A stretch of DNA of 64,000 bases from Nitrosopumilus sp. (GTDB lineage: Archaea > Thermoproteota > Nitrososphaeria > Nitrososphaerales > Nitrosopumilaceae), in contig OZ243974.1 in NCBI GenBank assembly GCA_965214775.1, forward strand, positions 1,344,001 to 1,408,000, given 5' to 3'. The notes beneath the pieces were generated by a model. That model did not search any database. It was not told the origin of the DNA and worked only from the letters and a program-made list of their open reading frames with translations. Both the position numbers and the translations under genes were made by a program. Every line of letters starts with the position of its first letter. Positions within the stretch are counted from its first letter, which is position 1. This document shows positions 28,070 through 49,185 of the stretch, one piece after another.

Positions 28070-28177
28070 CCTGCACGTTTTTCTGAATTTCTTCCCTTTT
28101 GCATGAACTGGGAGATGCACACAGTTACAGTGGGACTGCTTCCTGCACGTTTTTCTGAATTTCTTCCCTTTTGCATG
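28070..28177. repeat. Repeat-spacer-repeat unit (36/36/36 bp)
   Basis: CCTGCACGTTTTTCTGAATTTCTTCCCTTTTGCATG at 28070-28105 and 28142-28177 around a unique 36 bp. Confidence 0.93.
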
Positions 28178-42593: not shown

Positions 42594-42897
42594 AAACAAT
42601 AGACATTATGCGTAATCGACCTGAACGAGATGAATTTGTTTGCAACAATCCTGGCTTTGAACCGATTACGCAGTCTAGTGCCCGTAGATGTAACTGATCC
42701 TCAAATGCTTCAAGAACTTTTGCCAGTCAGCACGGTTCATTGCGCGGGTCGGTATGGCCTTATCGGAACCGCAGGCGGAGGCAGGTCATATCTGCAGTTT
42801 TGATTTTATCTTGGTTATGTCGTTTTCTATCCTCTCAAACCGAGAGTCAAGCATCTCGTGGATGTTGGATGAAAGACTTTGGATCTCCGTTATGGTC

Positions 42898-42971
42898 TGA
42901 TCCTGCTTGTCCAGCATCTGATCCTGCTTGTCCAGCATCTGATCCTGCTTGTCCAGCATCTGATCCTGCTT
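42898..42971. repeat. 21-bp tandem repeat x3.5 encoding a KQDQMLD heptad
   Basis: TGATCCTGCTTGTCCAGCATC repeated without spacers. Confidence 0.92.
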
Positions 42972-43013
42972 CGAATCTATGGATTTCAGATACATGGAGC
43001 CGGTGCTGAATCC

Positions 43014-43126
43014 CTTGGTGGTCTCGTCGACAAGGATGCGCATCATTTTGAGGCGTTATGCCAGGCAAGGAAGAGCTTACACCTAAACTTGGTGGTCTCG
43101 TCGACAAGGATGCGCATCGTTTTGAG
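43014..43126. repeat. Repeat-spacer-repeat unit (39/35/39 bp)
   Basis: CTTGGTGGTCTCGTCGACAAGGATGCGCATC(A/G)TTTTGAG at 43014-43052 and 43088-43126. Confidence 0.92.
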
Positions 43127-44329
43127 AAGCATCAGGTTCTCTGGCGACATGTTCTTTGGAGCCTCCTCGTCCAGTCCGTTATGTTCTATGCGAAAAGTCG
43201 GGTACAGGCCTGTGCCCTCTGAATACTCGGATCGGATGTTTTTGATCAGGACTGGCCTTGGAAGGTTTCTTATCGATTCAAGCATTGCGTCGATGTCCTC
43301 CCGCCTTCTCTCGCATACGATCTCGACTGTGCCGTCCTCTAGGTTCTTGACGTATCCGTGAATCTCGCGCCGTATCGCCTCTGCCTGTACGAGGCAGCGG
43401 AGCCCGACTTCCTAGACTGTCCTTTCAAGCAGGAACGATGCCCTCTGCATACGGACAGTTGCCCTCGTGTGTATATTACAATTATGGCGTACTCATTCTT
43501 GATTATAGTGACGGGTTATTCCATGCCGGGTGGCGTGTGGACTTTGTGCGTAATCTACATAGATGAGATGAATTGTACAATTCATTCCTACGTAAAATCA
43601 GATGTGAACAGGAAGTTTGGATGAATGTTTTACGCCTGGAAAGTTGGGGGCCTGACGTGTATGACGAATTTGTTTGCAACAATCCTGGTTTTGAACTGAT
43701 TACAGTACCTGTCTGCTTATAGTGACGATTAAAAGTCTTTGATCATCAAAAAGCGCCTTCCTGGGTAGTTTATGCCCACACGTGCTCAAACTTTTAATCG
43801 CTACTATGACCACCTATCTTTTCGTTCCTTCCTAACTGACTTTGTTTTCTCTTTGAAATCCATTCCTTTTTCAAAAAATTCCGATATCAAAATTTTCATA
43901 GCAGATCGTGCTGTTTGTAAAGTGACTTGCGATCTTGTACGCAAACTCTGTTTGAACGGCCATTGCTGATGGCAGGATTCATGCCTGAACTTCCAGATCC
44001 CAAGACGCTGCGAATTTTTCCCTGATTTTGAGATCCTTTGTTATGGACTTGGCTGATGTTCCTGGCAGCCGGCATTTCCCACAAACTTTTCCCTGACTTT
44101 GATGATGTCTTTTTGCTCAAGTGCATCGGCAATCAGCTCTGCCTAGGGTTGGCCCGACACAAAATTTTACTCCAGAAAGAGAGAACTCTCTTATGCTTTG
44201 GTTCATGCTGCCCTTTGATCCCCTCAACCCCTTCAAGTTCGTTATCGGAGAGTCCTGCTCTTGGAGCATCATTCCCGTCTGTCACCATGCCGTCGAGTTT
44301 TATTGATTAATGGCCTGCCGGGACTATTC

Positions 44330-45001: not shown

Positions 45002-45274
45002 TTAAATTTCTTTAATCTCGGTAATCGTTCCCTGGACGGAATCCATCTTTACAATTGCCCTTTTTTCTTCCTCTTCCTCTCTATCTTCCTTCTCCTCCTC
45101 CTCCCATCCCAATGCCACATACCAGTCTCCTGCATCATCGTCGTATTTCGTCTCCAAAACCTTTGCTTCTTGGGGCCTGATGCTGTATTTTTTGGCTATT
45201 GCTGATACGGCTAGTGCTATTGCGTCCTCTTCCTTCTCTAGCCTTCTCTTCATCAACCCAATTCCGGGACTCAT
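45002..45274 (-). CDS. Small hypothetical protein with an acidic low-complexity stretch
   Basis: MSPGIGLMKRRLEKEEDAIALAV..WYVALGW..MDSVQGTITEIKEI; start placed at MSPG. Confidence 0.7.
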   Translation of the reverse strand: MSPGIGLMKRRLEKEEDAIALAVSAIAKKYSIRPQEAKVLETKYDDDAGDWYVALGWEEEEKEDREEEEEKRAIVKMDSVQGTITEIKEI

Positions 45275-45328
45275 GGTTTTCTCCTGCCCATCATGCAACA
45301 TATTAACTAATAAGATTGGCCTTGGGGC

Positions 45329-45436
45329 AAGTGGAATCATCATCATCGATCCATTTTTCCAGAATAGGGCGTTGACGGCGATGGTCTTCCCACTGCCGTG
45401 TAAGTGGAATCATCATCATCGATCCATTTTTCCAGA
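45329..45436. repeat. Repeat-spacer-repeat unit (35/38/35 bp)
   Basis: AAGTGGAATCATCATCATCGATCCATTTTTCCAGA at 45329-45363 and 45402-45436. Confidence 0.93.
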
Positions 45437-45490
45437 CTGGCATCACCTTTGGCAACATTTCAAATATCCCTTTTCCAGAGTGCAATCAAA

Positions 45491-46084
45491 GTGAAACTGA
45501 CCAGAATAATTCCAAAATCGTCTTTTAGAGCACCTAGCACGCTTCTGCCATTTGTATCCGTATTGGCAGTTGCCGGCCCAGTCATTGTAGTTTTTGCAGG
45601 CTTTTGGGATGCCGTTTCCCATCTTCAAAAAGAACCCGAGTTCTTTTGGAGCGCCCCCCACATGGCCGTCTATGCGGGAGTTACAATGTCTTTGTCTGGC
45701 GCGGTCTTGGGAGGCATCCTGCTTTACAAAAAATCCGTCCACAAATCCCTGAAAACCGGAATTCAGCTTGTGGTTGCCGGCTCTGTCATGCAGGCCATCT
45801 CCGGATTTGGCGACTCTCTGTCTCATGACCTTTTTGGAATTGACGGGCTGATCTCCTGGTCCCATCAACCCCTTGAACTGGGACTTGTCTTGGCGTCTCT
45901 TGGCGCCGTCTTTATAATCAAAAACAGGGAACACACAAGACTCCGGCTTTTTCTTCCATTCTCAATTGTGACATTCCTGTTTTTTGCAACCTGGCTGGCA
46001 TTCAATCTGGTTTTGATCGTCGGCCATACCGTCCAATGCATTCCTGTCTATGAAATATTCTCATCTGGCTGCGCCATACTGTAG
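45491..46084 (+). CDS. Multi-TM membrane protein with conserved W/H motifs
   Basis: WDAVSH..FFWSAPH..DSLSHDLFGIDGLISWSH; start uncertain (GTG 45491 assumed). Confidence 0.75.
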   Translation: MKLTRIIPKSSFRAPSTLLPFVSVLAVAGPVIVVFAGFWDAVSHLQKEPEFFWSAPHMAVYAGVTMSLSGAVLGGILLYKKSVHKSLKTGIQLVVAGSVMQAISGFGDSLSHDLFGIDGLISWSHQPLELGLVLASLGAVFIIKNREHTRLRLFLPFSIVTFLFFATWLAFNLVLIVGHTVQCIPVYEIFSSGCAIL

Positions 46085-48513: not shown

Positions 48514-49185
48514 TCAGATGATCTTTATTCCTGGATTCTTGATCCTGTTTTGAATCATCGCATTTAGAAGCAATGGCGTGGCCATCTCTGCAAGATATGA
48601 AAGCTCAATTGGACCAAGATAGATTGAACGGAGCCCCTTGATCTCGTCAATTAGCGTATTGACTGAGCTTACTGCCTCCTTGTCGTCCCCACACACAAAA
48701 ATATCATAGTCTAACTCGAGCGTTGGATCTGCAAGCTTTTTCTCCGAAATTACATGAAATGCCGAGACCAACCTTGATTTGTCCCTCATGTGGTTTGAGA
48801 CAAGCTTGTATGAAAACGGCTTGTTGTCCTTGATTGGCACACACTCAAAACCAACACCTGTTTTTGTCATTGGAACGATTGGCGATACAACTACACACCT
48901 CTCCTTTGTCTCTGAAAGAACTCCAGAACACACTGCGTCAATGTTCTCATACGGGATTGACAAAATCAAGACGTCGCTCTGTCTTGCAACTGAGACATTG
49001 TCGTCTCCAGAAATCGTACCCTTGATCTGCCCAAACGCTTCTTTTGCGATATTTGCATATTGGGCCGCAGATTCAGCTGCCCTTGCAGCATCCCTGGAGC
49101 CAACCATCACCTCGTGATTCTGCGACCATCTCAGGGCAAAGCCCTTGCCCATGCCGCCTGTTCCGCCAATAATCCCAATCTTCAT
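48514..49185 (-). CDS. npdG: NADPH-dependent F420 reductase
   Basis: IGIIGGTGGMGKG, GSRD, VSAFH, VCGDD. Confidence 0.9.
   Translation of the reverse strand: MKIGIIGGTGGMGKGFALRWSQNHEVMVGSRDAARAAESAAQYANIAKEAFGQIKGTISGDDNVSVARQSDVLILSIPYENIDAVCSGVLSETKERCVVVSPIVPMTKTGVGFECVPIKDNKPFSYKLVSNHMRDKSRLVSAFHVISEKKLADPTLELDYDIFVCGDDKEAVSSVNTLIDEIKGLRSIYLGPIELSYLAEMATPLLLNAMIQNRIKNPGIKII

Follow-up and report, generated by a model that had tools for sequence, protein, structure and literature searches.

A repeat-insert-repeat unit between two divergent genes of Nitrosopumilus as a probable product of off-target CRISPR spacer integration

Between two divergently transcribed genes of a Nitrosopumilus genome, 35 nt of intergenic DNA occur twice, on either side of a unique 38-nt insert. 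The unit is very probably the product of an off-target spacer integration by the type I-B Cas1-Cas2 of the host, probably acting together with Cas4. Four observations lead to this reading: the duplicated DNA is native, the geometry is that of a repeat-spacer unit in the host arrays, the adaptation module is intact, and the genome carries 41 more units of this class. In the proposed mechanism, a 38-nt prespacer would have been joined to the DNA between the two divergent promoters by two staggered strand transfers, about 35-36 nt apart. Gap filling would then have duplicated the 35 nt between the nicks, leaving a native repeat, a foreign insert and a second native repeat. The kind of event is already known; the present case is a natural, archaeal, type I-B instance within an unusually large set. 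The genome consists of one contig (C1) of 2,833,656 bases, and the window, i.e., the whole stretch of 64,000 nucleotides that was analyzed, corresponds to C1:1344001-1408000. Positions given without a contig name refer to the window. The unit has three parts:

45329-45363, no strand assigned: neo-repeat copy 1 (35-nt duplicated target), a perfect match to copy 2
45364-45401, no strand assigned: spacer-like 38-nt insert, GC 23/38, minus strand reading HGSGKTIAVNAL
45402-45436, no strand assigned: neo-repeat copy 2 (35-nt duplicated target), a perfect match to copy 1

The two copies of the direct repeat (AAGTGG...CCAGA) differ by 0 mismatches. With up to three mismatches allowed, the window holds two matches to the repeat and a single match to the insert; two or more repeat matches were seen in 0/100 shuffles, and 0/100 shuffles gave as many matches to the insert. 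Genome-wide, both are without further copies; the best other match to the repeat covers 16 nt, and blastn-short gave one of 13 nt at best for the insert. These exact copies and the shuffle control bear out the description, given in an earlier note made from the letters of the window, of a perfect 35-bp duplication around a unique 38-nt insert. A direct count also reproduced the G+C content reported there for the insert, 23/38 vs 47.1% for the genome, and the P-loop-like GSGKT reading of the reverse complement is present in frame 2 (HGSGKTIAVNAL). The TGGAA/TTCCA dyad described in the same note does occur in the repeat, but neither strand of the 35-nt repeat folds better than its shuffles (z -0.74 and +0.45). 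Across the repeat and the whole unit, folding was likewise no better than in shuffles, with z between -0.87 and +0.45. In an Rfam scan of the unit, the top match had E = 0.41 and 14.9 bits vs a gathering score of 50, and no CRISPR-DR family was matched.

The unusual shape of the unit, together with a repeat length near common k-mer sizes, would fit an assembly artefact, or else a tiny transposon that left a 35-bp target-site duplication as its footprint. This reading is hardly credible. The repeat-insert junctions are present in independently built contigs of four public runs from four studies, the run that holds them best being possibly the sample of origin. In run X1, a 98-nt contig (45334-45431) has a depth of 186.8, equal to that of its flanks (177.3 and 184.7), and the 35-mer reaches 376, about twice that value. 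In runs X6 and X7, contigs span 45260-45410 and 45335-45585, respectively. In run X5, the contig of the insert has a depth of 5.8 vs 10.9 and 13.8 for the flanks. Such a difference might point to a mixed population, with and without the insertion, but it was set aside because contig depth is no share of cells. As for a transposon, none of the 42 inserts resembles another, hence there is neither a family nor terminal inverted repeats. A MITE was ruled out for the same reason, this insert being moreover unique in the genome. Casposases are Cas1 homologues, common in the genus, which make staggered cuts and a target-site duplication as proposed here. Casposon target-site duplications measure about 14-15 bp. 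Casposons are, however, kilobase-sized elements with terminal inverted repeats, whereas the one Cas1-family gene of this genome sits in its I-B locus. A casposon footprint was ruled out on account of this single gene and the lack of inverted repeats.

The position of the unit between divergently transcribed genes, also stated in the earlier note, was confirmed, with gene starts at about 45274 on the minus strand and 45491 on the plus strand. The surroundings comprise the following features:

45002-45274, minus strand: gene A, a small acidic, genus-conserved protein without a Pfam family; the ATG at 45274 is the likely start
45289-45314, no strand assigned: promoter-like box beside gene A, aligned to TCATCTAATATAGTTAATTCA in 10 relatives
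45452-45466, no strand assigned: promoter-like box beside gene B, GCAACATTTCAAATA; relatives have CAATATTTCAAATA (10 aligned)
45491-46084, plus strand: gene B, a 197-aa hydrophobic membrane protein without a Pfam family, with a GTG start (ATG in relatives)

The likely start of gene A is residue 25 of a 114-aa ORF; homology in most relatives begins at residues 21-25, and the start-codon context CCNGGACTCAT is conserved in relatives. The box beside gene A would be a TATA/BRE region and the box beside gene B a TATA region. The unit is located between the two conserved boxes and outside them, and both boxes point away from it. Eleven loci of the same genus were fetched, and the ten in which both genes are adjacent formed the comparison set. 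From start context to start context, the interval measures 238 nt here vs 133-140 nt in the ten relatives, in which the duplication is absent. In the alignment, the 3' half of the repeat (ATCCATTTTTCCAGA) falls on TTGAATTTTTCTAAT, an intergenic motif that is conserved and occurs once per relative (10/10). Because the relatives have a shorter interval and a single motif, the structure is derived. The possibility that it was ancestral, which the earlier note had proposed to check in the orthologous intergenic region, is thereby answered in the negative. From this alignment, one repeat copy is native DNA, and the 73 nt made up of the insert and the second copy were added by an insertion that duplicated 35 nt of its target.

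The host encodes a complete adaptation module. Its type I-B locus (C1:2420114-2433412) has the order Cas8b?-Cas7-Cas5b-Cas3-Cas6b-Cas1-Cas2-Cas4 and lies beside array 1. Cas7 is of the Cas7/Csh2 type, and the Cas8b candidate is a 591-aa protein without family match, named by position only. Cas1, Cas2, Cas4 and Cas6b are found at 2.425-2.428 Mb of the genome, and the Cas1 gene inside this locus is the single Cas1-family gene of the genome (TIGR00287, 1.1e-64). Array 1 contains 68 repeats of 37 nt with spacers of mostly 34-36 nt (range 33-39 excluding four outliers, one spacer of 38 nt) and periods of mostly 70-76. Array 2 (C1:1977219-1978060), an orphan at 450 kb from array 1, contains 11 perfect 36-nt repeats and a degenerate one; its spacers measure 36-39 nt, three of them 38 nt. 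Its neighbours are an IS66 transposase, a TraD/HerA-like ATPase, a prepilin-peptidase-like gene and an actin-like gene; no cas genes were found beside it among 10 upstream ORFs (NCBIfam/Pfam). Array 2 looks like a stand-alone array borne by an integrative-conjugative element (ICE). Passages of a study on Thaumarchaeota describe such elements with stand-alone CRISPR arrays (Krupovic et al. 2019, PMC6563490). That work concerns the phylum and the type I-B context of the present genome, and array 2, beside TraD/HerA-like and IS66 genes and without cas genes, resembles the arrays described there. The arrays of that study have several spacers and canonical repeats, in contrast to the unit described here, and its passages seen make no mention of off-target units (PMC6563490).

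With 35 + 38 = 73 nt, the unit matches a single repeat-spacer unit of the host CRISPR arrays in size. The duplication of 35 nt compares with canonical repeats of 36 and 37 nt, and the insert of 38 nt falls inside the spacer ranges of both arrays. By sequence, neo-repeats are no more similar to the two canonical repeats than random 36-mers (z -1.2 and +0.8), the repeat of this unit being at the 32nd-40th percentile of random 36-mers for this similarity. The fit with the cas-adjacent array is not perfect. The most frequent duplication length in the class is 36 nt (35 nt here), 1-2 nt below the 37-nt repeat of array 1, and the inserts (36-38 nt) are 1-2 nt above its modal spacers (34-36 nt); the period is equal. 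Unit geometry is closer to that of array 2, which has no adjoining cas genes. In E. coli type I-E systems, the terminal nucleotide of the repeat comes from the prespacer. By analogy, the terminal nucleotide of the annotated array 1 repeat could possibly be prespacer-derived.

The unit belongs to a class that is spread over the whole genome. A genome-wide scan in which exact direct repeats were sought at set distances returned 61 unique, non-tandem singleton repeat pairs of at least 28 nt with periods of 40-200. More than half of them (36/61) have a period of 70-76, with counts of 8, 13 and 9 at periods of 72, 73 and 74, respectively. Entry into the catalogue was limited to exact duplications of 31-46 nt with periods of 70-76, and removal of eight low-complexity or tandem cases from 50 candidates left 42 units, about 15 per Mb. 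Their repeats are all different, and their mean period is 72.9 (sd 1.3). Among these 42, duplications measure 36 nt in 13, 37 nt in 8, 35 nt in 5 and 38 nt in 4 units, and inserts measure 36 nt in 10, 37 nt in 7 and 38 nt in 9. Duplication and insert lengths are anticorrelated (r = -0.92), partly from the way the boundaries are read. Excluded from the catalogue were multi-copy elements with internal 25-nt repeats and a period of 75 (e.g., C1:113943, 228016, 794568 and 1521943) and a family of 33-39-nt repeats with periods of 79-82. These multi-copy families look like IS or other repeated elements.

The window holds three units, at 28070, 43014 and 45329. The first two are:

28070-28177, no strand assigned: second unit of the window, a 36-nt duplication with a 36-nt insert that is an exact copy of C1:2405741-2405776
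43014-43118, no strand assigned: third unit of the window, a 31-nt exact duplication (39/42 with mismatches) at period 74, splitting a minus-strand ORF

For the insert at 28070, the distance of the source to array 1 is about 15 kb, and that to the adjoining cas genes is 20 kb. The pieces split by the unit at 43014-43118 are the ORFs 43043-43285 and 42786-43046, and MRILVDETTK is encoded in both. The downstream piece also carries a tandem QDQMLDK repeat.

Several units can be compared with their empty sites in the same genome. Six units have paralogues with identical flanks, one repeat copy and no insert. In a seventh, 72 nt were inserted in frame into the gene of a PMT/LamG-domain protein, two paralogues of which (66-85% identical over the aligned segments) are without exactly the insert and the second repeat copy. 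Moreover, 8 of the 36 examined units lie deep inside ORFs; five of these eight are in frame (72 nt) vs 3/28 of the others (Fisher p = 0.006). This in-frame bias is the pattern expected of real insertions filtered by selection, and it is a further argument against an assembly artefact. Five units occur within 16 kb at C1:1266242-1281970, a region with paralogous PMT/LamG surface-protein genes. One 562-aa ORF harbours two of them (1266906 and 1267835), at its end and in its interior, and the unit at 1266242 is about 0.6 kb away. The cluster is either an integration hotspot or a region of relaxed selection.

The ends of the duplications show a sequence preference. A 5' G was found on 32/76 strands vs a background of 23.5% (p = 3.5e-4) and GT on 12/76 vs 5.3% (p = 6e-4). 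The array 1 repeat begins with GT on both strands. The duplication of the present unit has A at its start and end, not G. The flanks of the G-oriented units contain no motif besides the 5' G.

The sources of many inserts could be traced. Host DNA elsewhere matches 17/42 inserts over at least 75% of the insert length, several at 100%, vs 0/77 canonical spacers (Fisher p = 1.6e-9), including 0/67 spacers of array 1. The presence of self-derived inserts in the units but not in the arrays is to be expected if such inserts are lethal in a working array and harmless where no crRNA is made. Of the single-copy sources, 8/12 map no further than 200 kb from the cas locus (binomial p = 4.6e-5). At the 12 mapped sources, no consistent PAM was found, with a 5' TTT in 4/12. 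The mean G+C content is 51.6% for the inserts and 42.7% for the canonical spacers. One source lies within the window:

49039-49076, minus strand: protospacer of the 38-nt insert of the unit at C1:345230, 100% over 38 nt, inside the 223-aa ORF 48514-49185

The insert of the unit at C1:2776475 shares with its source (C1:2615427-2615464) the 11-mer GTCATTACGAC, which also forms the 3' end of the array 1 repeat. The bases upstream of this source also resemble that repeat, and a solitary, decayed copy of it may lie there, at 2.615 Mb.

An origin without Cas proteins, by template switching, microhomology-mediated break repair, or a staggered break filled with captured DNA, has to be weighed against these data. 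It would agree with inserts that are often copies of host DNA. Five units with 43-46-nt duplications and short inserts are not accounted for by a simple ruler model, and among these long-duplication units, three with mapped sources have a source flank that resembles the target beside the junction. One similar unit was also found in a relative (G002) in which Cas1 was not detected, which does not sit well with an origin from Cas1-Cas2. Nevertheless, such repair processes give variable lengths, but the 42 units have a period of 72.9 with an sd of 1.3, and the 36/61 singleton repeats in the 70-76 range have the CRISPR unit length of this genome. Furthermore, the sources cluster around the cas locus, and the duplication ends favour 5' G/GT as in the canonical repeat. 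A Cas-free origin is therefore considered improbable, and we infer that Cas1-Cas2 was the enzyme behind the unit.

The earlier note had read the unit as a CRISPR-like repeat-spacer-repeat with an insert captured from a helicase or ATPase gene, possibly of a mobile element. The first part held up and is sharpened by the native repeat-length duplication, the spacer-length insert, the intact Cas1-Cas2-Cas4 and the class of 42 units; for the second part, no source was found. The sequence check that it had proposed gave no source for the 38-mer in any collection searched. In the own genome, a six-frame peptide search returned just 4-mismatch matches in unrelated P-loop genes. Viral contigs gave 0 matches to the exact or the codon-degenerate pattern, metagenome contigs gave 0 to two degenerate patterns, and genome contigs gave 0 to a 12-residue pattern. 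A 9-residue pattern (HGSGKTIAV) had 13 matches in genome contigs, which were all rejected as chance: nucleotide identity was 19-26 of 38, and non-P-loop ORFs such as DprA-like and histidine-phosphatase-like ones are among them. The 38-mer had no blastn match below E = 0.1 in phage and plasmid collections and 0 matches at up to three mismatches in 300 genomes of the family. Hence, neither a protospacer nor a PAM for this insert was found in own, family, species, viral, metagenome, phage or plasmid sequences. By chance, G..GK[ST] is encoded in 302/200,000 random genomic 38-mers and GSGKT in 25/200,000. A striking peptide in some insert is expected, given 42 inserts. Going by its translated reading, a P-loop gene is a plausible source of the 38-mer.

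The rarity of such a reading (302/200,000) could be taken in favor of a functional orphan mini-CRISPR array, whose transcript would be cut into one crRNA directed against a viral or plasmid-borne gene for a P-loop ATPase. The repeat and the insert have CRISPR-like sizes, the insert has no match in the host, as would be the case for a foreign-derived spacer, and a true mini-array of one spacer, built on a canonical repeat, exists in the relative G053. The repeat of this unit, however, is native intergenic DNA, no closer to the canonical repeats than random DNA, so Cas6b has no evident substrate here. There is no Rfam match above noise and no structure beyond that of shuffles. The single spacer is upstream of both promoter-like boxes, which point away from it, and 17/42 units of the same class carry self inserts, which would be autoimmune if functional. 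A working mini-array is thus very improbable. As a product of off-target integration, the unit is now probably an inert, neutral scar, since it has no canonical repeat for Cas6b, no leader and one spacer, and lies upstream of both promoters. It is possible that it is the seed of a new array.

Off-target integration has been shown mainly in E. coli under artificial overexpression of Cas1-Cas2 and in vitro. In E. coli, overexpression of Cas1-Cas2 leads to off-target integration that spawns new arrays, termed neo-CRISPR (Nivala, Shipman and Church 2018, Nat Microbiol; as described in 10.1101/148544, PMC6698737, PMC7054753, PMC9456107 and PMC11788318). As far as these citing texts describe them, the E. 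coli events share with the present unit a spacer-length insert in a repeat-length chromosomal duplication outside the arrays, with a "repeat" that is different from site to site, and they depend on the adaptation module, which is intact here too. They are rare and follow from artificial overexpression (Nivala et al. 2018, via citing papers). In contrast, the units described here are natural, archaeal, of type I-B context, with duplications of about 36 nt and 42 fixed events in one genome. Integration near IHF-like motifs was reported in the accounts of E. coli, whereas no such guide is visible here. A passage citing Nivala et al. (2018) mentions circumstantial evidence only for a natural occurrence, in two other species.

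In P. furiosus, Cas1-Cas2 alone can integrate off-target at non-CRISPR sites in vitro (PMC6698737, passages). The first repeat nucleotide (G1) matters there according to the same passages, which parallels the 5' G preference of the present units. That work is a plasmid assay (PMC6698737), whereas the units described here are chromosomal fossils whose neo-repeats have no overall similarity to the canonical repeats. For isolated or orphan arrays, off-target acquisition is one proposed origin (Shmakov et al. 2020, CRISPR J, as cited in PMC13142298). Following that citation, isolated arrays were found by CRISPR finders, in contrast to the single spacers and unique, non-CRISPR-like repeats described here; standard array finders would probably miss these units. 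The literature searched, exclusive of supplements and of the lists of natural cases in Nivala 2018 and Shmakov 2020, contained no report of natural off-target integration at this scale or in Thaumarchaeota.

Dozens of natural events can be studied in this one genome, where exact junctions, empty sites and traceable sources are at hand. The ruler of the integrase (about 36 nt) and its 5' G/GT target preference can be read from the units, as can the unselected prespacer pool (self DNA near the cas locus) and the selective filter (in-frame survivors). On balance, it seems rather likely that the type I-B integrase acts as a genome-wide insertional mutagen, which would have left at least 42 fixed stray spacers as an unselected record of naive adaptation, with self prespacers mostly from near the cas locus. 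It would thereby make 24-residue in-frame insertions, split genes and seed proto-arrays. CRISPR adaptation would have a route into genome change through 24 residues added to proteins, split genes, and one-spacer proto-arrays. In genome annotation, such units should not be labelled as CRISPR arrays or regulatory repeats.

Relatives were scanned for singleton units with a period of 70-76 in five 400-kb blocks from four genomes (2.0 Mb), and two blocks of the present genome were counted alongside:

This genome, Cas1 present: 7 and 8 units (two 400-kb blocks)
G053, orthologous Cas1 and near-identical repeat family: 2 off-target-type units and 1 mini-array in block 1, 0 in block 2
G320, Cas1 present: 0 units per 400-kb block
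G002, no Cas1 found: 1 unit (30-nt duplication) per 400-kb block
G078, no Cas1 found: 0 units per 400-kb block

With 42 units in 2.83 Mb here vs 3 off-target-type units (two in G053, one in G002) in the 2.0 Mb scanned, the class is not unique to this genome but is far denser in it. This higher density and the clustering of the sources at the cas locus are indirect evidence for a dependence on Cas1-Cas2. Because G053, with its orthologous Cas1, shows the same kind of units, such integration may be typical of this thaumarchaeal I-B lineage. The one-spacer mini-array of G053 (L062-L081, G053:C1:43914-44022) has a 37-nt repeat, GTCAAATTGAC...GGATTGAAAC, almost identical to the array 1 repeat of the present genome. 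Cas1-family genes were found in 46/80 sampled genomes of the genus, in surrounding ORFs of about 330-360, 405-450 and 555-580 aa. The two larger size groups (405-450 and 555-580 aa) would presumably fit casposases and Cas4-Cas1 fusions.
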